Part shown: in pieces, positions 1 to 52,887 of the stretch
Layout of the letters: every line of letters starts with the position of its first letter
How positions within the stretch are numbered: the first letter of the stretch is position 1
Source: Candidatus Kutchimonas denitrificans
GTDB lineage: Bacteria > Gemmatimonadota > Gemmatimonadetes > Palauibacterales > KS3-K002
DNA: 64,000 nt
NCBI GenBank assembly: GCA_011774835.1
Contig: JAACAK010000083.1
Span: 25,042-89,041 of the forward strand
Direction: 5' to 3'
Notes under the pieces: generated by a model
Told to the model about the DNA's origin: nothing
Databases searched by the model: none
The model's input: the letters and a program-made list of their open reading frames with translations, nothing else
Program-made: the position numbers and the translations under genes

Positions 1-912
1 AACGGCGAGACCCGAGGTCCAGCCACGAATGGCGCGGATGATCTCGAAGCCTTTCTCGACGCCGGTGCGGAAGTGCTCGGCGCCGGCGACGGGATCGGCC
101 ATGTAGAGGTAGTAGGGGCGAATCCGGTTCTTGAGGAGCTTCTGCATCAATTCCTTCATGATTTCCGGATCGTCGTTGACGCCCTTGAGGAGCACGGTTT
201 GGGAACCGAGGGGGCAGCCGGCGTTGGCGAGCTTCGCGATCGCCTTTTCGGTGGGTGGTGTAAGCTCTGCCGGATGATTGAAGTGGATGTTGACGAATAC
301 GGGATGATACCTCGAGATCAACTTGCAGAGATCAGCGGTGACGCGCTCGGGCAAGTGGAGCGGGACCCGCGTGTGTATGCGGATGATCTCGATGTGTGGG
401 ATTTCCCGCAGACGCTTGAGGAAGTATTCGAGCCGGCGATCGGAGAGCATGAACGGGTCGCCGCCCGATAGGATGACGTCGCGCACCTCGGTATGCTGTT
501 CGAGATACTCGAAGGCGGATTCGAACTGATTCAGCGGGATCTTCTCGGGGTCGCCCACCTTGCGTCGCCGAGTGCAGAAGCGGCAATAGCTGGCGCAGAC
601 GGGGCTGACCAGGAAGAGGACCCGATCGGGGTAGCGATGGGTGATGTTCGGCACGGGCGAGTCATTGTCCTCGCTCAATGAGTCGACGACTCCGTCGAGG
701 ACCTCGTTCTCCTCACCCGAGGGCACGTACTGCTGCCAGAACGCGTCGCCCATCGACTCGATCTGCTTCAACACGGCCGGGGTGATCCGGAGGTTGAACT
801 GCTCGATCGCGGTCTGCGCGGCCTCGCGGTCGATGTTCTCCTCGCCGAACAATTCGATGAGCTGGTCAACCGTCGTGACACTCTTCTTGAGTATCTGTTG
901 CCAGTTCGCCAT
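1..912 (-). CDS. KamA-family radical SAM aminomutase (lysine 2,3-aminomutase-like); C-terminal part lies outside the window
   Basis: Absent from the ORF track because it runs off the left edge. My manual minus-strand translation from ATG 912 is open for 304 codons: MANWQQILKK...HRYPDRVLFLVSPVCASYCRFCTRRRKVG...VILSGGDPFML...TVLLKGVNDDPEIM...RIRPYYLYMADPVAGAEHFRT. It has the CxxxCxxC radical-SAM motif plus the GGDP, GVND and HFRT blocks typical of KamA/AblA/EpmB enzymes. GAGG lies about 8 nt upstream of the ATG. Confidence 0.85.
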   Translation of the reverse strand, partial: MANWQQILKKSVTTVDQLIELFGEENIDREAAQTAIEQFNLRITPAVLKQIESMGDAFWQQYVPSGEENEVLDGVVDSLSEDNDSPVPNITHRYPDRVLFLVSPVCASYCRFCTRRRKVGDPEKIPLNQFESAFEYLEQHTEVRDVILSGGDPFMLSDRRLEYFLKRLREIPHIEIIRIHTRVPLHLPERVTADLCKLISRYHPVFVNIHFNHPAELTPPTEKAIAKLANAGCPLGSQTVLLKGVNDDPEIMKELMQKLLKNRIRPYYLYMADPVAGAEHFRTGVEKGFEIIRAIRGWTSGLAV

Positions 913-931
913 AACGCTTACCTCGGTCGAA

Positions 932-1534
932 TCATGAGTTAGAGTTGCGGAGGGCCGTTCCCCTCACGTCCTCACCTCGTCCTTCGTCTTCACCTCTCGC
1001 ACTCACTCGCGGCGAAGGAACGCCTACAAAGAGCTTGGTATAAGTGACCCGATCGTCGCGCTCGTCGTAGAAATCGGGCACCCTGGCGACCTCCTTGTAG
1101 CCACAGGCGTCGTAAAAACGCCGGCTGGCGCTGTAGTCGTCGCGTGAGGATGTCTCGATCACGCACATGCGAGCTCCCCGGTTCTGCATGTCCCGCTCGA
1201 CTCGTTCGATCAGTCCGCGCCCCACGCCGCTGCGGTGGAAGTCGGGGTGTACGACGATCCAGTACAGGTCCCAGGTGTCCACGGTGCACGGCGTCGGTCC
1301 GTAAAACGCGAAGCCGGCCATCGCGCCGTCGGCGAATGCGGCCAGCGCCCGGTAGTCGACGCCGGGGGCGGCACAGAAATCGTCGAAGACCTCCAGCGCG
1401 ACCTCGATCTCGTCGGGCCGGAAGGCGCCGGTGGCCATCGCGATGTCGGCGACGCGCCGACGGTGCCGGCGGTCCGGCGGCCGCCACTGGAAATCGGCGG
1501 CCCGTTTACTGGGTGCTGAGGCTGCGGTCCTCAT
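932..1534 (-). CDS. GNAT-family N-acetyltransferase
   Basis: This is the C-terminal 201 aa of track ORF 932..2041. I chose the start at ATG 1534, which overlaps the stop of the upstream gene (ATGA). The block LYWIVVHPDFHRSGVGRGLIERVERDM matches the GNAT acetyl-CoA binding motif. The Arg/Pro-rich N-terminal part of the track ORF is an off-frame shadow of the neighbouring gene. Confidence 0.75.
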   Translation of the reverse strand: MRTAASAPSKRAADFQWRPPDRRHRRRVADIAMATGAFRPDEIEVALEVFDDFCAAPGVDYRALAAFADGAMAGFAFYGPTPCTVDTWDLYWIVVHPDFHRSGVGRGLIERVERDMQNRGARMCVIETSSRDDYSASRRFYDACGYKEVARVPDFYDERDDRVTYTKLFVGVPSPRVSARGEDEGRGEDVRGTALRNSNS

Positions 1535-2655
1535 CGGGCGTCTCCCAGCTTCTCGACCGGTCTCAGGAAGACCCACTCCCGCTCGGCCGTGGCCTTCCCG
1601 TTGGTGGCCAGGGCCGAATCGACGATGCGATGGATCAGATCCGTAAAGGACCAGCCGGCGACGCGTGCCTGCCTGGCGAGGCCGGCGTCCACCGACAGAT
1701 CGGGGTTCGGGTTGATGTCGATGACGTAGGGCGCGCCGTCGGCGGCGATCCGGATGTCGACGCGGGCGTAACCGCGGCCCTCCATCAGAGCCCAGGCTCG
1801 GCCGGCGAGGAGCTGCAGCCGGCGCGCTTCGTTGTCGGATAGCGGCGCCGGGCAGATGGGCTGCGTGCCCAGGTCTTCGGGGCTCCCGGTCATCCACTTG
1901 GCCTCGAACGAAACGATGGGGGGCGAGTCGTCCGGCAGCCGGCTGAAGTCGATCTCGGCCGGTGGCAGCAGGTGGTTGCCGACGATGGCGAGGTTGATCT
2001 CGCGCCCCTCGATGAACTGCTGCACGACCGCCCTCTTCCAATGGGGGCGTATCCGCTCCAGCGCGCCGGCGAGCTCACCCGCCGATTCGACCACCGAGCC
2101 CGGGTGAACGCCGTTGGATGCGTCGTCGGCCGCCGGCTTGACGATGGCGGGAAACTGGTTCCAGTCGGCGGGCGGCGCGTCCTGCGTATATACGAGAGCC
2201 CAGTCCGGGACCGGGATGCCGTGGGATCGCAGCACGGCGGCACAGCGGTCCTTGTCCAGGCAGTAGAGGAGCGTGGCAGCGGAAGCGCCGGTCTTGGGGA
2301 GCTTCAGCAACTCCATCGTGGCGGCGGCCAGGTGCTCGCCTTCGGCGTGCCCGGCTACGGTCTCGCAGAGGTTGAAGGCGAAGTCGAACCGATCCGAGGC
2401 CAGCCGCTTCACCCATTCGTGGATGCGGTGCTCCTGCAGGGCCAGCTCGACCGTTTCGTAGCCAAGCTGTCGCAACGCCTCGATGATGCGAACCGTCGAC
2501 TGGGAAGGCGCCGCCATGCCGGTGGCGGCCGCTTCCTTTTCTGCGATCTCATCGACTACGACCACGACACGCTCGACGGTCTTGATTTCACCGTCGGGTT
2601 GTGCCGTGGGTTGGCTCGCAGGCTGGCTCGCCTTAGTCGAAGACTCTGAGGTCAT
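1531..2655 (-). CDS. ATP-grasp ligase, D-alanine--D-alanine ligase-like paralog
   Basis: Track ORF 1531..2655. ATP-grasp blocks are FPAIVKPAADDASNGV, VVQQFIEGREINLAIVG and GYARVDIRIAADGAPYVIDINPNPDLS. It lacks the canonical Ddl N-terminus seen in the true ddl at 51856. Confidence 0.8.
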   Translation of the reverse strand: MTSESSTKASQPASQPTAQPDGEIKTVERVVVVVDEIAEKEAAATGMAAPSQSTVRIIEALRQLGYETVELALQEHRIHEWVKRLASDRFDFAFNLCETVAGHAEGEHLAAATMELLKLPKTGASAATLLYCLDKDRCAAVLRSHGIPVPDWALVYTQDAPPADWNQFPAIVKPAADDASNGVHPGSVVESAGELAGALERIRPHWKRAVVQQFIEGREINLAIVGNHLLPPAEIDFSRLPDDSPPIVSFEAKWMTGSPEDLGTQPICPAPLSDNEARRLQLLAGRAWALMEGRGYARVDIRIAADGAPYVIDINPNPDLSVDAGLARQARVAGWSFTDLIHRIVDSALATNGKATAEREWVFLRPVEKLGDAR

Positions 2656-3670
2656 AGCGCGCAGCGGCCGCCGCGAGGACCTTCAGGATCACGTCATCGA
2701 ACGAGAATCCTGCGGCTCGAGCGGCTTTCGGGTAGCACGAGTTCGCGGCCGGGTCCGGAATCACGCCGGGTATCGGGTTCACCTCGATGATGTGCGGGGT
2801 GCCGGTCCGATCACAGCGTACGTCGATTCGGCCCCAGTCGCGGCAGCGGAGACTGCGAAACGCTGCCATGGCGATCTCTTCGATCCGGCGCTGCAGTTCG
2901 GGCTCGCACCGGGCCGGACATTGGAAGATGTCCAGCGGCTTCTGCGGTCGGTCCCAGACCCACTTGGCTTCGAAACCGTAAAGCGGCTGGGCTCCGCCGG
3001 GGAGCGTGGAGTAGTCCAGCTCCACGATCGGTAGGGTTCGCCCGTCACCGTCGTTCCCCAGGACCGCCACGGTGAATTCGCGGCCGTCCAGGAACTCTTC
3101 GATGATGGCGGGTTCACGGTACCGCTCGACCACCCGGGCGACCTCATCTCTCGCTTCACGCCAGGTGGTGCAGAAGGATCGCTGGGTAATGCCCTTGCTG
3201 GACCCCTCGTGGAGGGGCTTTACGATGACGGGCAGCGGCAGGGTGCGTTGCACGTCGTCGGGGCATTCCACGACCTGGAACTCGGGCGTCGGTATCCCGT
3301 GGTGGGAAAGCGTCTCCTTGGTGCGCGCCTTGTCGAGGCAGATCCCCAGGGTGAGAGGATCGCTGCCGGTGTACGGGATACCCCAAAACTCGCAGAAGGC
3401 GGGGACGAAGGATTCCCTGCTGGCCCCACCGATGCCCTCCGCGAAGTTGAAGACTATGTCGGGCTGTGTGTCGCGCAGTTGGAAGGGGAAGTCCGCGTTG
3501 GCCTCGAGGCGAACGACTTCACCGGCGGCCGACAGCGCGCGCTCGATGGCGGCGATGGTCTCCTCATCGTCCCACTCGGCGTACATGTCGTCGAAGCGAT
3601 GGCCGTCGGCGCGCGTCGCTCGCTTGCCGTTCTTCGCGGCAACCGATCTCTGCGTCTGTTGGGGAGACAA
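2633..3670 (-). CDS. ATP-grasp ligase, D-alanine--D-alanine ligase-like paralog (second copy)
   Basis: Track ORF 2633..3670. ATP-grasp blocks are LPVIVKPLHEGSSKGI, AIIEEFLDGREFTVAVLG and WGRIDVRCDRTGTPHIIEVNPIPG. It overlaps the next gene by 23 nt. The TTG start at 3670 is uncertain; ATG 3586 is an in-frame alternative. Confidence 0.8.
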   Translation of the reverse strand: MSPQQTQRSVAAKNGKRATRADGHRFDDMYAEWDDEETIAAIERALSAAGEVVRLEANADFPFQLRDTQPDIVFNFAEGIGGASRESFVPAFCEFWGIPYTGSDPLTLGICLDKARTKETLSHHGIPTPEFQVVECPDDVQRTLPLPVIVKPLHEGSSKGITQRSFCTTWREARDEVARVVERYREPAIIEEFLDGREFTVAVLGNDGDGRTLPIVELDYSTLPGGAQPLYGFEAKWVWDRPQKPLDIFQCPARCEPELQRRIEEIAMAAFRSLRCRDWGRIDVRCDRTGTPHIIEVNPIPGVIPDPAANSCYPKAARAAGFSFDDVILKVLAAAAARYDLRVFD

Positions 3671-3672
3671 AA

Positions 3673-3695
3673 GGGCGAGCTCGCCCGAAGGCGAG
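3673..3695 (-). promoter_or_regulatory. Three-segment alternative-pairing element at the 5' end of the ATP-grasp/GNAT/KamA operon
   Basis: The plus strand reads GGGCGAG CTCGCCC GAAG GCGAG. On the minus-strand RNA, CUCGCC-UUCG-GGCGAG competes with the perfect palindrome GGGCGAGCUCGCCC. That palindrome is followed by UUUUG, whose last three bases are the putative TTG start. Confidence 0.3.
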
Positions 3696-4117
3696 TTGAC
3701 CTGAAGCGACGCCGACTCGTGGTCCGGCGGTTTCAGGTTAAAGGCGAATCCGATGCGAAGCCTGTTCGCGCGAAAGCCCTGGACCGACGTGGCAGTCGAT
3801 CGTGCTCCAGTGCTTCTGATTGCGCCCCCTCCTGTGGGAGTTCATCGAGCGAAGCCGCGCTTGAGGCACATAAAAAAAATTGATCCCCACCTCCGCACGT
3901 CCCCATCACTTTCAACTCGAACAAATTTAGATGAAAGAATCGGAAAAGGAAAGAGTTTTTGTGAACCGATGTCACCCTTTCTACTCCGGGGGCGTCGTGC
4001 ATCGACCGTCGATTCGTCGATCGTGGCCCGGATAGCTCATCGATTTGATCGCCCCGGTCGGCGAGCGTAGCTTGTTAACCTTCATTAACGAAAGTGAAAT
4101 GCGAAGCGGACGGCGCG

Positions 4118-5251
4118 ATGCCGATGGGTGACCAGCAAAAAGATGTTTACCGAACGACGGTGACCGTCCCGCCATCGACAGCGGCCCGTTCCTACGAGGT
4201 GATCGTCCGCTCCGACCTCCTCGATCAGGCCGGCGAGCCCATCGCCGACCTCTGCCCCGCCCATCGATATGCCGTGATCGCCGACACACAGGTCGCCGAC
4301 CTCTACGGAAAGCGTCTGCTCGAAGCGTTGGCCGCGGCGAAGCTCGAAGCCAGCCTCTTTCGCTTCCCGGCGGGCGAGTGGAACAAGAGCCGGCAGGTAT
4401 GGGGCGAGTTATGCGACACTATCTTGCGAGCCGGCTTCGGGCGTGATTCGGCCGTCATCGCCCTCGGCGGTGGCGTGGCGGGTGATCTGGCGGGGTTCGT
4501 GGCTGCCACCTACATGCGGGGGGTGCCTGTCGTGCAGGTCCCGACCAGCCTGCTCGCCATGCTCGACAGCTCGGTCGGCGGCAAGACGGGCCTCGATACG
4601 CCCATGGGGAAGAACCTCATCGGGGCCTTCCACCAGCCCGCGGTCGTGCTCGTCGATCCAGAGACGCTGAAGACTTTGCCCCTCCCCCAGTTGGCGGCGG
4701 GCCTGTCCGAGGCGATCAAGCATGGCCTCATCCTCGACGCGGACTATTTCGAGGAGATCGCGGGCCGGTTACCGGCGGTGTTCGACCGAGACTCCGAGTA
4801 TCTGCTGCGTCTGATCTTCCGCTCGGTGGAGCTGAAGGCCGGGGTGGTGAGCCGGGACGAGCGGGAGAGGGGATACCGAACGGTGCTGAACTTCGGTCAC
4901 ACGGTGGGACACGCCCTGGAGACCCTGTCGGGCTACGGGTGGCTGCACGGCGAGGCGGTGGCGGCCGGGCTGGTGGCGGAGGCGCGGATCGGCGAGGCGG
5001 CCGGGGTGACCGCCGCCGGGACGGCGCAGCGGGTGCAGGAGGTGCTCGAGGCGGCGCGACTCCCGGTGGAACCGGAGGCCGACGTGACGGCCGACCGCTT
5101 CTTCCGGGCGCTCGAGGTGGACAAGAAGCGAAAGGGTGGGAGTGTGCGGTACACACTCCTGACGCGCATCGGAGAGGTGGCAGGCTCGAGCGGGTCCGGG
5201 TGGTCGAAGGAGGTTCCGGAGGAGCTGGTGCGAAGGGCGCTGTTCGGCTGA
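4118..5251 (+). CDS. aroB: 3-dehydroquinate synthase
   Basis: Track ORF 4094..5251. Signature blocks are GGGVAGDLAGFVAATYMRGVPVVQVPTSLLAMLDSSVGGKTG, NLIGAFHQP, VLNFGHTVGHALE and HGEAVAAG. I prefer ATG 4118 over GTG 4094; the start is uncertain by about 10 codons. Confidence 0.9.
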   Translation: MPMGDQQKDVYRTTVTVPPSTAARSYEVIVRSDLLDQAGEPIADLCPAHRYAVIADTQVADLYGKRLLEALAAAKLEASLFRFPAGEWNKSRQVWGELCDTILRAGFGRDSAVIALGGGVAGDLAGFVAATYMRGVPVVQVPTSLLAMLDSSVGGKTGLDTPMGKNLIGAFHQPAVVLVDPETLKTLPLPQLAAGLSEAIKHGLILDADYFEEIAGRLPAVFDRDSEYLLRLIFRSVELKAGVVSRDERERGYRTVLNFGHTVGHALETLSGYGWLHGEAVAAGLVAEARIGEAAGVTAAGTAQRVQEVLEAARLPVEPEADVTADRFFRALEVDKKRKGGSVRYTLLTRIGEVAGSSGSGWSKEVPEELVRRALFG

Positions 5252-7162: not shown

Positions 7163-9394
7163 ATGAGTAGAACGCATGACTCGCCCGACGGGCGAGGCGA
7201 AGCGCTTGCACCGGTGACCGACGAGGCCCACCAGGCGGCGCTGCTGATCGATTTCGACAACGTCACCATGGGCATCCGCTCCAACCTCGGCCAGGAGATG
7301 CGCAACCTGCTGAACTCCGAGGTGATACGAGGGAAGGTCGCCGTGCAGCGGGCCTACGCGGATTGGCGCCGCTACCCCCAATACATCGTTCCCCTCTCCG
7401 AAGCTTCGATCGATTTGATCTTCGCGCCGGCCTACGGCTCCTCGAAGAAGAACGCCACCGACATCCGGCTGGCGATCGATGCCCTGGAGCTGGTCTTCAT
7501 CCGTCCCGAGATCCGGACCTACATACTGATGTCCGGCGACAGCGATTTCTCCAGCCTGGTCCTGAAGCTGAAGGAATACGGGAAATACGTGATCGGCGTG
7601 GGGATCCAGGAGTCGAGCTCCGATCTTCTGGTGCAGAACTGTGATGAATACTACAGCTACACGGCCCTCTCGGGGCTGAGCAAGACCAGCGATCAGGTGA
7701 TCGAGAGCCACGACCCGTGGGTGTTGGTGGAGAAGGCGGTGAGCAAGATGGTCGAGCGGGGCGACACGATGCGCTCGGATCGTCTGAAGCAGGTGATGCT
7801 GGAGATCGATCCGTCGTTCGACGAGAAGGAACACGGCTTCAGCAAGTTCAACCGTTTCGTGGTGCAGGCGGCATCGAAAGGGCTGGTCTCGATCCAGAAG
7901 ATGGAGAACGGGCAGTACGGGGTGGCGCCGGGGGACCGTGGCGGCAAGGGACGCAAGCCGAAAGAAAAAGGCGAGGCGGAAGCGGACCGCAAGAGCGAGG
8001 CGAAGGCACGGTCCGGAAAGCGTGAGGATCGAGGCGAACGAGGCCGCGCCAAGAAGAAAGACCGTGAGGGGTCGGAGCCGGGGCGGCAGGAGCGGACCCG
8101 GCGGGCGCGACCGAAGCTCACGATGGAGGGGGCGCTGGCGCTGTTGGACCGGACCCTGGGCATCCTGCTGGAAGGAGGGGGTGACTCGGTCCGCGACAGC
8201 GACGTGAAGCGCCGGATGTTGGAGTTGGAGCCGGGCTTCGACGAGGGCGAGCTGGGATACAGCAAGTTCAGCAAATTCTTGCAGGCGGCGGAGGAGCAGG
8301 GGGCCATCCGGCTGACCCGGGGGCCTAACGGCAACTACCACGTGAGCCGCGGCGGGAAGCGCGAGCCTAAAGCGAAGGAGGTGGCGGCGGAGCCGGAAGC
8401 CGGGGTGAGCACCGGCGAGTCGACGATGAGGCGGTTGGCCCGCTTCTTCTTCGGCGGCAAGCCGGAGGGCGCCGAAGAGCCTTCGGGCGCGGGCGGCGGA
8501 GAGCTGGCCCCAACCCCGGGCGGGAGGCCGACGGAGGAATCACGTCGGCGGCACCGGGGTCGAGGGCCGCGTCGCGAGGCGCGCGGAGCGCCACGGGCGG
8601 ACCGGCGCGAGGGGCCTGCGGGTCGCGGACGCCGGGACGCGGAGGAACGGTCGGGTCGAGGCCGGGAGGTGCGGCGCGAGGAACGACGGGCGGTGCGGGA
8701 CAAGAGCGAGGCGCGTCAAGGCGAGCGTCGCCGGGAAGAGGGGCGAAAGGCGCAACCTCACGGACGCCGCGAGCCTCGTAAAGGGCGCCAGAAACCCGAC
8801 CGCGAGCCGGAGCCGCGGCAGGAAGAGCCGCGCCCGGCCGCCGCGGCGGCGGCACCGCGCGAGGCGGAGCCAGCCGATGCGAACGATCGGCAGGCGGCCG
8901 CTCCGAGCAAGGAGGGGAAGCCGGCCGCTGAGGGTAAAGAGGAAAAGCCGGCGGCCGAGAGCACGGAGCGGAAGCCCGCGGTGACCGAGGCGCCTCTGCC
9001 GGGCGCGCCGCGGGGCACGATCCGGGGTCGCTGGGGAAGCCGGGGACGCTACCGTCCCTCCGAGGCGCCCCCGCCCATCTTCGAGGGACAGACTCGGGAC
9101 GGCGTCTCGAAGAGCGAGTCCACCGAAAGGCGCGGCGAGACGGCGGAAGCTTTAGCGGGCTCGGAACCGACGGGCGTGGCGGGGCCGTCGCAGGACGAGG
9201 GCATCGTGGCGCACCTCACCGGCTACGCGGGTGTGGGTGGCAAGACCGCCGAGGCGCTGGTGGAAGCGTTCGGAGACGAGACCTTCCGGGTGCTGGACGA
9301 GGAGCCCGACCGGGTTCGGCAGGTGTTGCCCGATCATCGGGCCGAGCGCGTGCTCGAAGCCCGGCGCCAGGAGCGTGAATCCGAAGGTACGTGA
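7163..9394 (+). CDS. NYN-domain (PIN-like RNase) protein with two LOTUS/OST-HTH domains, a long Arg/Glu/Pro-rich low-complexity tract and a C-terminal helix-hairpin-helix-like tail
   Basis: NYN/LabA block: ALLIDFDNV...AYADWRRY...KNATDIRLAIDALE...YILMSGDSDFSSLVLKLKEYGKYVIGVG. The two OST-HTH-like segments end in GFSKFNRFV and GYSKFSKFL. About 270 aa are R/E/P/A-rich. The tail GYAGVGGKTAEALVEAFGDETFRVLDEEPDRV resembles an HhH motif. A single uninterrupted frame links all parts. Confidence 0.8.
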   Translation: MSRTHDSPDGRGEALAPVTDEAHQAALLIDFDNVTMGIRSNLGQEMRNLLNSEVIRGKVAVQRAYADWRRYPQYIVPLSEASIDLIFAPAYGSSKKNATDIRLAIDALELVFIRPEIRTYILMSGDSDFSSLVLKLKEYGKYVIGVGIQESSSDLLVQNCDEYYSYTALSGLSKTSDQVIESHDPWVLVEKAVSKMVERGDTMRSDRLKQVMLEIDPSFDEKEHGFSKFNRFVVQAASKGLVSIQKMENGQYGVAPGDRGGKGRKPKEKGEAEADRKSEAKARSGKREDRGERGRAKKKDREGSEPGRQERTRRARPKLTMEGALALLDRTLGILLEGGGDSVRDSDVKRRMLELEPGFDEGELGYSKFSKFLQAAEEQGAIRLTRGPNGNYHVSRGGKREPKAKEVAAEPEAGVSTGESTMRRLARFFFGGKPEGAEEPSGAGGGELAPTPGGRPTEESRRRHRGRGPRREARGAPRADRREGPAGRGRRDAEERSGRGREVRREERRAVRDKSEARQGERRREEGRKAQPHGRREPRKGRQKPDREPEPRQEEPRPAAAAAAPREAEPADANDRQAAAPSKEGKPAAEGKEEKPAAESTERKPAVTEAPLPGAPRGTIRGRWGSRGRYRPSEAPPPIFEGQTRDGVSKSESTERRGETAEALAGSEPTGVAGPSQDEGIVAHLTGYAGVGGKTAEALVEAFGDETFRVLDEEPDRVRQVLPDHRAERVLEARRQERESEGT

Positions 9395-38806: not shown

Positions 38807-38880
38807 GCGCCCGTAGCTCAATTGGACAGAGCACTGGGCTTCGGACCCAGGTGTTGGGGGTTCGAATCCTCCCGGGCGCG
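38807..38880 (+). tRNA. tRNA-Arg (anticodon UCG)
   Basis: I folded the cloverleaf by hand. The acceptor stem is GCGCCCG/CGGGCGC and the D stem is GCTC/GAGC. The anticodon stem is CTGGG/CCCAG with loop CTTCGGA (anticodon TCG). The T arm is GGGGG-TTCGAAT-CCTCC and the discriminator is G. CCA is not encoded. Confidence 0.93.
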
Positions 38881-38887
38881 CTTCGAA

Positions 38888-40164: not shown

Positions 40165-40531
40165 GTCCGCGAGGGGAGCGAAGGGTCGCGGGCCGGCGCC
40201 GTCAGGCGCGCGGTCCGAGGAAAGTCCGAGCTCCGCAGGGCAGGGTGCCGGGTAACGCCCGGGCGGCGCGAGCCGACGGAAAGTGCCACAGAAAACAGAC
40301 CGCCGGTGCCTTCGGGCGTCCGGTAAGGGTGAAAAGGTGGGGTAAGAGCCCACCGCCCGAGCTGGTGACTGCCGGGGCACGGTAAACCCCACCCGGAGCA
40401 AGGCCAAGCAGGGGAGAGTGGTGGCCCGCCGCGTGACCATCCCCGGGTAGGCCGCACGAGGCGTCGGGCAACCGGCGTCCCAGATAAATGACCCAATAAA
40501 CAGAACTCGGCTTACGGCTCCCCTCGCGGTA
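40165..40531 (+). ncRNA. rnpB: RNase P RNA, bacterial class A
   Basis: The universally conserved P4 strands are GAGGAAAGTCCG and ACAGAACTCGGCTTAC. Other conserved blocks are GGTAACGCC, GAAAGTGCCACAGAAAA, GGTAAGGGTGAAA, GGTAAACCCCACC and AGCAAGGCC. The P1 helix pairs CCGCGAGGGGAGC (40167-79) with GCTCCCCTCGCGG (40517-29). Confidence 0.9.
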
Positions 40532-50029: not shown

Positions 50030-50434
50030 TTGAAACGACTGATGACTGCTGGTCTGATCGTCGCGACCGCGGCTGTCGCCTACGCGGCGGCGAGCGATCT
50101 GATCGACGTCGACGCGCTGTTCCGAAAGCCGGTGCAGCGGCTGCCGGCGCTACGCAGCCAGGAGATGCCGTTTCGATACCCGGTTCGCCTGTGGCGCGAG
50201 GGGGTCGAGGGCGAGGTGCTGCTGCGGATTCACATCTCGGTGGACGGCACCGTGGACTCCGTCGAACTGTCACGCTCCAGCGGCCACGCCGCGCTCGATT
50301 CGATCGCCATGGCGGGCGCCGAACGGCTCCGCTATCACCCGGCGACGGTGGGGACTCAGCCGGTCGCCGTTTGGGCGGCTCTGCCGGTCCGCTTCCAGCG
50401 CACGTCGATGACGAGCTCACCGGAGGAGAGGTAA
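50030..50434 (+). CDS. TonB C-terminal domain (energy transducer-like) protein
   Basis: After a signal/anchor helix comes YPVRLWREGVEGEVLLRIHISVDGTVDSVELSRSSGHAALDSIAMAGAERLRYHPA, which is a TonB_C pattern. Confidence 0.65.
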   Translation: MKRLMTAGLIVATAAVAYAAASDLIDVDALFRKPVQRLPALRSQEMPFRYPVRLWREGVEGEVLLRIHISVDGTVDSVELSRSSGHAALDSIAMAGAERLRYHPATVGTQPVAVWAALPVRFQRTSMTSSPEER

Positions 50435-50436
50435 TC

Positions 50437-51840
50437 ATGTCGGCCCATGCTCAGCCGCCGCACAAACGACCGTACGACAGCGTTCTCGACGTCATCGGCT
50501 GGACGCCGCTGATCCGCCTCACCCGGGTCGTCGATGGCGCCGTCACCCCGGTGTACGGGAAGGCGGAGTTCATGAACCCGGGCGGCTCGGTGAAGGACCG
50601 GATCGGGATCGCGATGATCGAGGCGGCCGAGCGGGCCGGCACCCTCAAGCCCGGAGGCGTGATCGTCGAGGGGACCGCTGGGAACACGGGGATCGGTCTG
50701 GCGATCGCCGCCTGCGTGAAGGGTTATCGCTGCATCTTCACCATGCCGGACAAGTTCAGTCAGGAGAAGATCCGGCTGATGCGGGCCTTCGGAGCCGAGG
50801 TGATCACGACGCCGTCGGCGGTGCCGCCGGATCACCCCGATAACTACCTGAACGTCGCGCGCCGGCTGGTCGACGAGACGCCGAACGCGGTCATGGCGGA
50901 CCAGTTTTACAACGATGCCAACCCCGAGGCGCATTACGAAACGACCGGACCCGAGATCTGGGACCAGACCGGCGGCCGCATCACTCATTTCGTCGGCGCC
51001 GCTGGAACCGGCGGCACGGTGACCGGCGTCGCCCGCTATTTGAAACAGCAGAACCCGAACGTGAAGGTGATCACCGCCGACCCCAGAGGATCGATCTATG
51101 CCGACTACTGGAGGACGGGCAAGATCGGCGACTACGCGCCCTACAAGGTCGAAGGCGCCGGGAACGACAAGATTCCCACCACGCTCGACTTCGACGTCGT
51201 CGACGAGTTCCACAGCGTGGACGACCGTGACTCCTTCCGAATGGCTCGCCGCCTGACCCGCGAGGAGGGCTTGTTCGTCGGTAGCACCTCGGGCCTCATC
51301 CTCCACGTGGCGGTGCAGCTGGCTCGCGAGCTCGACGACCCCAACGCGCTCATCGTCGGGCTGCTCTGTGACACCGGCGAACGCTATCTGTCGAAGCTCT
51401 ACAACGACGAGTGGATGAGAGAGAACCAGCTGCTGGTCGACCAATCCCCCACCATCGAGTCACTGCTGAGCAAAAAGCAACGCGACCTGCCGGGCCTGAT
51501 CGCAGTCGCGCCGGACACCTCGATCCGCCAGGCGCTGCAGCTGATCGAAGACAACAACGTGTCGCAGCTTCCCGTGCTGCACGAGCGGGAGTGTGTCGGA
51601 TCGGTATCGGAGTCGGGCCTGATGGCCCGGCTACTGCGGGAGCCGGACATGATCGACGCGCCGGTGGATCAGGTGATGGAGTCCCCGCTGCCGGTGGTGG
51701 AAGACGGGGCCGATTTCGACCGGATTACCCACGAGCTGACGGGCGGACATCCCGCCGTGGTGGTCCGCACCCATGGCGAGCCGGCGGCCATCATCACACG
51801 ATTCGACGTCGTCCACTACCTGATCGGACTGGACGGCTAG
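50437..51840 (+). CDS. Cystathionine beta-synthase-like PLP enzyme (CysK fold) with C-terminal CBS-domain pair
   Basis: Signature blocks are NPGGSVKDRIG (PLP lysine), TAGNTGIGLA and GTGGTVTG. The C-terminal CBS-type repeats include IRQALQLIEDNNVSQLPVL. ATG 50437 is in frame within track ORF 50191..51840. Confidence 0.85.
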   Translation: MSAHAQPPHKRPYDSVLDVIGWTPLIRLTRVVDGAVTPVYGKAEFMNPGGSVKDRIGIAMIEAAERAGTLKPGGVIVEGTAGNTGIGLAIAACVKGYRCIFTMPDKFSQEKIRLMRAFGAEVITTPSAVPPDHPDNYLNVARRLVDETPNAVMADQFYNDANPEAHYETTGPEIWDQTGGRITHFVGAAGTGGTVTGVARYLKQQNPNVKVITADPRGSIYADYWRTGKIGDYAPYKVEGAGNDKIPTTLDFDVVDEFHSVDDRDSFRMARRLTREEGLFVGSTSGLILHVAVQLARELDDPNALIVGLLCDTGERYLSKLYNDEWMRENQLLVDQSPTIESLLSKKQRDLPGLIAVAPDTSIRQALQLIEDNNVSQLPVLHERECVGSVSESGLMARLLREPDMIDAPVDQVMESPLPVVEDGADFDRITHELTGGHPAVVVRTHGEPAAIITRFDVVHYLIGLDG

Positions 51841-51855
51841 ATTGGACCCGGTCGC

Positions 51856-52887
51856 GTGAAGATCGCGGTTCTGACCGGCGGCTCCAGCGCCGAGCGAGAT
51901 GTCTCGCTCGCGACGGGGACCGAGATCGCCCGGGCGCTGCGGGCCAATGAGCACGAGGTCATCGCCATCGATGCGGCGGGCGGCAAGCTGCTCGACCTGG
52001 ACGACGGTGCGGCGTCGGGCATCGGGCGCCGGCCCCCGGGACGCGACGAGCTGGCCGGGTTGAGCGAGCGCGGCCTCGCCAGCGAGCTGGAGAGGCTCCC
52101 CGCCTTCGCCGGCACCGATGTGGTCTTTGTGGCCCTGCACGGCGGAGCCGGCGAGGATGGTCGGGTGCAGGCGCTCCTCGATCTGGTGGGCGTACCCTAC
52201 ACGGGCAGCGGTCCCCTGGGCAGCGCGCTGGCGATGGACAAGCTCGTGTCGAAGGAGCTCTTCATCGGGGCCAACGTCCCGACGCCGCCCTGGCTGGTCG
52301 GGCCCGTCGACGCCGGAGAGGTGGAGAGCGCGCTGGGCGGCTTCCCCGTCGTGGTCAAGCCGGCGCACGAGGGCTCGACGGTCGGGGTGAGCGTGGTGAG
52401 GCGGCCAGCCGATCTGGAGGAGGCGCTGGCGCGGGCGTCGGCGTTCCAGGGACCGCCGCTGATCGAGCGGTTCATCCCGGGTCGCGAGCTGGCGGTGGGC
52501 GTGCTGGGCGAGAAGGCGCTGCCCGTCGTCGAGATCCGGCCGCAGCACGAGATCTTCGACTACGAGTGCAAGTACACCAAGGGGATGTCGGAGTACGAAA
52601 CGCCCGCGCCGATCGAGCCCGAGATCGCCGAATCCGCCCGCTCGTTGGCGGAGGCCGCGCATCGTATATTGAGATTGTCGGCCTACTGCCGGGTCGATTT
52701 CCGGCTCGACCCCGACGGCGGCCTATGGTGTCTGGAAGCGAATTCGCTCCCGGGGATGACGCCGACCAGCCTCGTCCCGAAGGCGGCGCGGGCCACCGGG
52801 ATGTCGTTCGAGGAGCTGTGCGAGCGGATCGTTCAGCTGGCGCTGGAACGGCCAGGAACTCCCCGTGAACATTGGGGTTTAGGGTAG
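51856..52887 (+). CDS. ddl: D-alanine--D-alanine ligase (canonical)
   Basis: Signature blocks are KIAVLTGGSSAERDVSLATG, ALHGGAGEDGRVQALLD, VVVKPAHEGSTVGVSVV and LEANSLPGMT. Confidence 0.9.
   Translation: MKIAVLTGGSSAERDVSLATGTEIARALRANEHEVIAIDAAGGKLLDLDDGAASGIGRRPPGRDELAGLSERGLASELERLPAFAGTDVVFVALHGGAGEDGRVQALLDLVGVPYTGSGPLGSALAMDKLVSKELFIGANVPTPPWLVGPVDAGEVESALGGFPVVVKPAHEGSTVGVSVVRRPADLEEALARASAFQGPPLIERFIPGRELAVGVLGEKALPVVEIRPQHEIFDYECKYTKGMSEYETPAPIEPEIAESARSLAEAAHRILRLSAYCRVDFRLDPDGGLWCLEANSLPGMTPTSLVPKAARATGMSFEELCERIVQLALERPGTPREHWGLG

Follow-up and report, generated by a model that had tools for sequence, protein, structure and literature searches.

A conserved operon joining two Ddl-like ATP-grasp ligases to a KamA-family aminomutase in Gemmatimonadota, and its possible role in the synthesis of a small β-lysine-containing peptide

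We analysed a 64,000-nucleotide stretch of the Candidatus Kutchimonas denitrificans genome (contig JAACAK010000083.1, positions 25,042 to 89,041 of the forward strand), referred to here as the window; all coordinates are window positions unless another contig or locus is named. Four closely packed genes occupy positions 1..3820 on the minus strand, in the order AG1-AG2-GNAT-KamA. They encode two Ddl-like ATP-grasp ligases (AG1 and AG2), a GNAT acetyltransferase and a KamA-family radical S-adenosylmethionine (SAM) enzyme. This operon is real, complete at four genes and widely conserved. With a probability that we put at roughly 55%, it carries out a self-contained, ribosome-independent synthesis of a small β-lysine-containing peptide, which would be N-acetylated in this organism. 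The enzyme families involved are known, but their combination is uncharacterised as far as we found: full-text literature searches revealed no description of KamA or β-lysine combined with Ddl-type ATP-grasp ligases.

The locus contains the following features:

1..912, minus strand: KamA-family radical SAM/pyridoxal phosphate (PLP) enzyme, predicted lysine 2,3-aminomutase; codons 1-304 of 363, with the remainder past the window edge (L001:11744-12835)
932..1534, minus strand: GNAT N-acetyltransferase of 200 aa (Pfam Acetyltransf_1)
1531..2655, minus strand: AG2, Ddl-like ATP-grasp ligase of 374 aa (Pfam PF07478)
2633..3820, minus strand: AG1, Ddl-like ATP-grasp ligase, 395 aa if AUC 3820..3818 is the start (Pfam PF07478)
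3828..3833, minus strand: Shine-Dalgarno sequence AGGAGG, 7 nt upstream of the AUC at 3820
3834..3990, minus strand: conserved operon leader with A+T-rich promoter region, blocks of which are kept across Gemmatimonadota loci
4094..5251, plus strand: aroB, divergent from the operon, passing the aroB equivalog cutoff

The AG2 start codon (ATG at 2655) overlaps the 3' end of AG1, which stops with TAA at 2635..2633, by 23 nt. GNAT (1534..932) starts within an ATGA that it shares with the stop of AG2, and 19 nt (913..931) separate the GNAT stop from the KamA ATG at 912. All these junctions reproduce the packing given in a preliminary description of the sequence. Its family calls held as well, with Pfam and NCBIfam placing AG1 and AG2 with Dala_Dala_lig_C, GNAT with Acetyltransf_1 and KamA with TIGR00238.

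Sequence beyond the window edge was read from contig JABAHQ010000977.1 of a Gemmatimonadetes metagenome-assembled genome (MAG; GCA_012974725.1), in which AG2 is identical letter for letter. On this contig KamA ends 180 nt past window position 1, giving a complete protein of 363 aa, and a convergent surface-protein gene lies 172 nt farther on. Upstream of the operon lie divergent genes for a 3-dehydroquinate synthase (364 bits against the NCBIfam aroB equivalog cutoff of 305) and an acyl-CoA ligase. Since KamA is complete, the downstream gene is convergent and the upstream genes are divergent, the operon consists of exactly four genes. The earlier suggestion that further cluster genes may lie past the edge was therefore abandoned.

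Conservation of the neighbourhood was analysed with an AG2 profile, run on 185,579 species with each represented by a single genome; it detected a relative at 536 loci. The arrangements given below are those of the best 80 of these 536 loci, each searched with all four proteins. The order AG1-AG2-GNAT-KamA is complete at 16 loci of Gemmatimonadota and found at five of Ignavibacteriota, and a single planctomycetotal locus has the order KamA-AG1-AG2-GNAT. AG1-AG2-KamA occurs without GNAT at 11 loci of Methylomirabilota, one of Auribacterota and two unclassified ones. The one Dormibacterota locus has, besides AG1-AG2, a distant member of the KamA family and a GNAT of the unrelated Eis type. Two loci of Acidobacteriota (L043 and L045, the latter stopping at a contig end) carry AG1-AG2 with no adjacent KamA, one deltaproteobacterial locus (L063) and one of Sandaracinus (L083) carry AG1-AG2 and GNAT with no adjacent KamA, and 16 loci of Myxococcota have AG2-GNAT only. 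The incomplete Gemmatimonadota loci break off at contig ends or at scaffold gaps of 100 N. In three MAGs deposited as 'chromosome' (L009, L023 and L025, accessions in the range CP0706xx-CP0708xx), exactly 100 N follow directly after AG2 or GNAT, and the seeming loss of KamA there is thus a scaffolding gap and not biology.

The preliminary description had proposed synteny of the four genes as a test, and the set is syntenic across several phyla. What stood up as a conserved core is AG1-AG2-KamA; GNAT turned out to be accessory, being absent in Methylomirabilota. GNAT is missing from some lineages, of another type in the Dormibacterota locus and fused to AG2 in some genomes; the conserved unit is thus AG1, AG2 and KamA, with N-acetylation as a variable extra. 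Flanking genes vary between phyla, and the aroB neighbour is stable throughout Gemmatimonadota only.

Several lineages showed peculiarities of their own. In the Dormibacterota locus the Eis-type GNAT (Acetyltransf_9/17 and SCP2; L072:8843-9985) replaces the small GNAT, and the KamA-family gene, about 31% identical to that of the window, shows no counterpart of the PLP lysine in the alignment. In Methylomirabilota the cluster without GNAT is preceded by a cysteine-rich protein of the Rv0495c family (PF11307) and also by a conserved membrane-anchored coiled-coil protein of 65 aa (both at L002:5507-6821 and L006:5897-6824); the sole literature found on the Rv0495c family is a preprint on a redox phenotype, which gave no mechanistic clue. 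The Myxococcota loci with an AG2-like ligase and GNAT but no KamA (L062, L070 of Cystobacter fuscus and about 14 more) look like a related but distinct module, present in cultured organisms. In Cystobacter the ligase and GNAT are followed by a transglutaminase-like protein.

The KamA translation contains the motifs CASYCRFC and YLYMAD, and matched the Pfam Radical_SAM model as well as KamA models. At full length it passed a single NCBIfam model, that of the KamA family (TIGR00238; 297 bits, cutoff 199). The cutoffs of the individual subfamilies were not reached: the scores were 437 bits for the AblA-type lysine 2,3-aminomutase (TIGR03820; cutoff 525), 372 for glutamate 2,3-aminomutase (cutoff 650), 314 for arginine 2,3-aminomutase (cutoff 600), 311 for AblA_like_2 (cutoff 396) and 246 for EpmB (TIGR03821; cutoff 369), the lowest of the KamA subfamilies. 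The ranking is thus AblA before glutamate, arginine and EpmB, and about 55 C-terminal positions of the TIGR03820 model are missing from KamA.

An alignment with the Clostridium subterminale enzyme (PDB 2A5H) showed 47% identical aa and conservation of the cysteines C125, C129 and C132, of R134, D293 and D330 and of the PLP lysine K337. In the 2A5H structure we take Asp293 and Asp330 to hold the ε-ammonium group of lysine and Arg134 to hold its carboxylate; KamA thus retains an acidic pair suited to a cationic side chain. The Asp in YLYMAD, which had been matched by eye to a lysine-binding Asp, corresponds indeed to Asp293, and Asp330, Arg134 and Lys337 are kept with it. CxxxCxxC, R134, D293 and D330 are present in all 46 full-length (>300 aa) KamAs linked to the cluster and K337 in 45 of them, the sole exception being the distant Dormibacterota paralogue. 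The identity between 2A5H and the cluster KamAs ranges from 47 to 56%. The 2A5H enzyme is closer to the KamAs of Planctomycetota, Auribacterota and the unclassified loci than those are to the window KamA, and as near to some cluster KamAs as these are to one another, so that a characterised lysine aminomutase falls inside the diversity of the cluster KamAs. From these comparisons we conclude that KamA is a lysine-type aminomutase that would make β-lysine, in line with the basic substrate proposed earlier and with AblA as best-scoring and EpmB as lowest-scoring subfamily.

Elongation factor P (EF-P) modification, named in the preliminary description as the competing role for an aminomutase of the EpmB type with efp or epmA adjacent, was rejected. 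EpmB gave the lowest subfamily score, and neither efp nor epmA was found within 10 kb on either side of the operon, nor any EF-P match in the 64-kb window. The EpmA/EpmB system of EF-P β-lysylation shares with the operon a KamA-family aminomutase acting on lysine; unlike there, the partners of KamA here are ATP-grasp ligases and not a LysRS paralogue. More broadly, the ligases might attach β-lysine to a macromolecule, either a protein in an EF-P-like or RimK-like manner or a cell-envelope precursor. There are precedents for this: EF-P β-lysylation is among the uses of KamA-type enzymes, RimK-like ATP-grasps modify proteins, and Ddl relatives act on peptidoglycan precursors. Besides the EpmB score and the missing efp and epmA, however, the clusters of the different phyla share no candidate target gene or small open reading frame (ORF), and AG1 and AG2 each show the full architecture of a small-molecule Ddl enzyme. 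We therefore regard a macromolecular target as improbable.

Both ligases matched Pfam Dala_Dala_lig_C (PF07478), AG1 with 119 and AG2 with 97 bits, and share 33% identical aa with each other. Their top NCBIfam matches are Ddl models (E 1e-53 for AG1 and 1e-40 for AG2) and their nearest PDB relatives are Ddl structures (E 1e-32 and 1e-22, respectively). An AlphaFold model of AG1 (pTM 0.78) found Ddl in Foldseek with a target-normalised TM of about 0.8. Both proteins nevertheless stay below the cutoffs of the Ddl models NF002378 (243 bits) and TIGR01205 (246 bits), AG1 with 179 and 144 bits and AG2 with 136 and 117 bits. A third Ddl homologue in the window (51856..52887, plus strand) passes these cutoffs with 324 and 282 bits. 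It is preceded by a cystathionine-beta-synthase-like gene (50191..51840) that scored just below its model cutoff.

E. coli DdlB, the numbering of which is used here, served as reference in an alignment of about 50 members of the AG1 and AG2 families; residues 71-304 of this reference were checked against a PDB alignment. Like the Ddl and Van ligases, with which they share the three-domain fold, both families keep the ATP-binding, Mg-binding and catalytic residues (K97, K144, E/Q180, E187, K215, R255, D257, E/D270 and N272). The positions that bind D-Ala are altered in both: H63 is replaced by Glu and Y216 by Trp, and S281-L282 reads S-C in AG1 (L282C) and A-G in AG2 (S281A, L282G). AG2 additionally has Ala or Gly in place of S150 (S150A in the window AG2) and the change G276D. 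Insertions in the lid region make the lid of AG1 and AG2 longer than that of Ddl. The window ddl, in contrast, keeps E15, H63, S150, Y216, S281 and L282. Catalytic residues kept, D-Ala residues changed and a true ddl elsewhere argue together that AG1 and AG2 are active ligases, with predicted specificities that differ from that for D-Ala-D-Ala. A housekeeping Ddl role was rejected in view of the genuine ddl and the scores below the Ddl cutoffs, and the earlier view of the two genes as non-housekeeping ligases was borne out by the separate ddl in the same window. The label 'D-alanine--D-alanine ligase', under which public records list AG1 and AG2 proteins, is misleading. The H63E change could suit a cationic substrate; yet the AG2 proteins of Myxococcota, where KamA is missing, also have Glu at this position, and the change thus provides no evidence for β-lysine.

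Two ATP-grasp genes with a GNAT also form the MdnB/MdnC/MdnD pattern, and the gene set resembles that of a graspetide (microviridin-like) cluster, where a ribosomal precursor would be processed by a GNAT and a pair of ATP-grasp macrocyclases. This explanation was rejected as extremely unlikely. AG1 and AG2 are full-length Ddl-type enzymes, as the E values and the TM of AG1 show, and not RimK-type maturases. No small ORF is conserved with the operon, the 5' intergenic region of which holds the AG1 extension only, and the small ORFs found elsewhere, a membrane coiled-coil protein and a zinc ribbon, are each confined to one lineage.

The GNAT passed the Pfam Acetyltransf_1 model (46 bits, cutoff 20.7) and has an acetyl-CoA motif, RSGVGRG, of the R/Q-x-x-G-x-G/A type. 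Its best NCBIfam match is RimI with 44 bits, far under the cutoff of 86, and an AblB-type model is not among its 12 NCBIfam matches at E <0.01. The closest solved relative is PDB 2R7H (E 1.7e-28), a structural-genomics entry from Desulfovibrio named 'putative D-alanine N-acetyltransferase'. The alignment with it begins at GNAT residue 5, supporting the ATGA-coupled start at 1534. A protein search with GNAT revealed close relatives from Gemmatimonadota only. In some Gemmatimonadota, AG2 and GNAT form one polypeptide of 540-547 aa (P0009, at L004:8001-9644, and P0021). P0166 and P0171, two database entries of about 605 aa each, resemble AG1 joined to a partial AG2; P0166 ends in artefact-like sequence, and both may be artefacts of assembly or gene calling.

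A lysine 2,3-aminomutase gene adjoins a GNAT gene not only here but also in ablA/ablB of methanogens, Chlorobi and Pelobacter and in yodP-kamA of Bacillus. The ablA/ablB genes make N-ε-acetyl-β-lysine, an osmolyte pathway (PMC3543383, PMC9337991). Conceivably, KamA and GNAT alone make N-acetyl-β-lysine in the same way and the ATP-grasp genes are unrelated neighbours. The order of GNAT followed by kamA is that of yodP-kamA and ablB/ablA, and the window KamA resembles AblA in its best model score and in the lysine-binding Asp pair. Still, we consider this very unlikely. The GNAT has no AblB match, is dispensable and varies between lineages, so that the parallel to AblB and YodP drawn in the preliminary description did not hold, and KamA is shorter than AblA and scores below its cutoff. 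The constant partners of KamA are instead the two ATP-grasp ligases: Methylomirabilota keep AG1-AG2-KamA without GNAT, AG2 is fused to GNAT in some genomes, and AG1-AG2-KamA are adjacent across five or more phyla.

The fusions parallel another known system. Ngg, which combines GNAT and ATP-grasp activities, makes N-acetylglutaminylglutamine, and in the Ngg/AsnO cassette for N-acetylglutaminylglutamine amide (NAGGN) a GNAT and an ATP-grasp ligase, sometimes as one polypeptide, make an N-acetylated peptide solute. Unlike this cassette, the operon has no AsnO-type amidotransferase or peptidase among the genes called within 10 kb, its ligases are of the Ddl type, and an enzyme forming a β-amino acid belongs to the set.

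In the pathway that we propose, KamA would convert L-lysine to β-lysine (3,6-diaminohexanoate) by radical SAM/PLP chemistry. AG1 and AG2 would form one amide bond each via an acyl-phosphate, according to the Ddl mechanism, and so would join β-lysine to one or two more amino acids, possibly to another β-lysine. Using acetyl-CoA, GNAT would acetylate a free amine. The resulting cytoplasmic compound would be a small β-lysine-containing di- or tripeptide, N-acetylated here and unacetylated in the lineages without GNAT, and its most likely role would be that of an organic solute or stress metabolite. In which order the enzymes act, what they join to β-lysine, what they make and what the cell uses it for are inferred. 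The preliminary description had likewise suggested an N-acetylated di- or tripeptide containing a β-amino acid, as a compatible solute or another small metabolite, an interpretation that is partly supported, with the chemistry deduced from the enzyme families.

Alternatively, the module might make a bioactive metabolite or antibiotic, such as an oligo-β-lysine or a cationic peptide like negamycin or streptothricin, with GNAT as tailoring or self-resistance enzyme. β-Lysine is a hallmark of cationic antibiotics, and GNATs acetylate the β-lysine of streptothricin as a resistance mechanism. That GNAT is dispensable in some lineages would fit such a function. The negamycin cluster, in addition, co-encodes β-lysine formation with an ATP-grasp ligase for amide-bond formation (bioRxiv 10.1101/2025.05.27.656397). 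Unlike that cluster, the operon lacks hydrazine-forming, hydroxylating and methylating enzymes and is a compact four-gene chromosomal module in several phyla. The module has no conserved neighbour for export, further tailoring or resistance, and its stable chromosomal site throughout whole clades (adjacent to aroB in Gemmatimonadota) is more like that of core physiology than that of a secondary-metabolite island. On balance, a bioactive product appears unlikely.

Several observations weigh against a β-lysine-containing peptide as the product. KamA is below every NCBIfam equivalog cutoff. It is not adjacent to the ligases in L043, L063 and L083 despite ample flank, and AG2-GNAT stand alone in Myxococcota; the KamA-less AG1-AG2 loci and the Myxococcota pairs suggest that the ligases may not be strictly specific for β-lysine. 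Across the loci, the cluster has no conserved transporter, regulator or salt-linked element beside it. Its carriers include MAGs from ordinary soil as well as from sediment, which does not indicate a specifically osmotic role. Finally, the product itself is a prediction.

The 5' end of the operon required revision. Recorded and mechanical gene calls differ for AG1: the NCBI call begins at ATG 3586 (317 aa, 78 residues short) and the mechanical ORF at TTG 3670, which had also been taken as the limit of the operon in the preliminary description. In other phyla, AG1 proteins start with the motif M-[R/K]-I-[A/G]-x-x-x-N-x-K. The same motif is encoded in the window as RIGFAFNLKP (3757..3728), in the AG1 frame and upstream of both calls. 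In the AlphaFold model of AG1, residues 21-27 (RIGFAFN) form a strand in the sheet of the N-domain with a pLDDT of about 92. The AG1 frame thus extends upstream to about 3820 and includes this first β-strand. No ATG, GTG or TTG is present in the AG1 frame between RIGFAFNLKP and the in-frame stop at 3844..3842.

Over this 5' stretch, 18 Gemmatimonadota loci could be aligned, 15 of which were compared by column and contained zero gaps. In the codon comparison of the 15 loci, stop codons numbered 0 in the AG1 frame and 26 and 2 in the other two frames. Synonymous differences were most frequent in the AG1 frame (288, against 190 and 199 in the others), the third codon position being the most variable. 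An AGGAGG (3833..3828), conserved in 13 of 14 aligned Gemmatimonadota loci, stands 7 nt ahead of a codon that is AT[AC] without exception, namely ATC (3820..3818) in the window and ATA in most relatives. The spacing between the two is constant in 16 of 18 segments and 6 nt in L004; this 1-nt deletion indicates that the sequence upstream of the AT[AC] codon is noncoding. AG1 is therefore probably a protein of 395 aa whose translation begins with a non-canonical AUC. Since a canonical start precedes the motif by about 10 codons in some relatives, the AG1 start may vary within the clade.

The leader (3834..3990, minus strand) is strongly conserved among Gemmatimonadota and contains an A+T-rich block, with TTTACA...TATCTTG in relatives. 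It also holds a GGCGGAGGTG element and a CUCC element adjoining the Shine-Dalgarno sequence, and a variable upstream ORF in a different frame begins with the ATG at 3845..3843. A riboswitch was considered and rejected, as a search of Rfam at E values up to 5 revealed nothing but one match at chance level. Two predicted hairpins, one sequestering the Shine-Dalgarno sequence and one pairing GGAGC with GCUCC, showed zero compensatory pairs and hence have no covariation support.

The divergent 3-dehydroquinate synthase homologue prompted a comparison with mycosporine-like (MysA-D) clusters. This candidate was rejected, since the homologue is a genuine aroB by its score, the locus contains no O-methyltransferase and the aroB neighbour is not kept outside Gemmatimonadota.

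Elsewhere in the window, positions 7163..9394 (plus strand) encode a 743-aa NYN/OST-HTH protein with a very long low-complexity region rich in Arg, Glu, Lys and Pro; local G+C in this gene reaches 0.77, with a strong purine skew. Two RNA genes were also identified:

38807..38881, plus strand: tRNA-Arg, anticodon TCG
40170..40530, plus strand: RNase P RNA, class A (274 bits)

More tentatively, AG1, AG2 and KamA, with or without GNAT, may represent an unrecognised route, independent of ribosomes and nonribosomal peptide synthetases, to a new class of β-lysine peptides, for example an N-acetyl-β-lysyl di- or tripeptide or a short oligo-β-lysine. Such a peptide could be a core metabolite of largely uncultured soil and sediment Gemmatimonadota, Methylomirabilota, Ignavibacteriota, Planctomycetota and Auribacterota, with AG1 starting at AUA or AUC in Gemmatimonadota. 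The probable AUA/AUC start would be a rare case of conserved non-canonical initiation that current gene callers miss. The annotation of AG1 and AG2 as Ddl is systematic and distorts inferences on cell walls and Van-type resistance. If the proposed pathway is correct, the Ddl branch of ATP-grasp ligases would gain two new substrate specificities, of possible use in enzymatic β-peptide synthesis, and abundant, poorly cultured bacteria of soil and sediment would contain a new β-amino-acid peptide metabolite.

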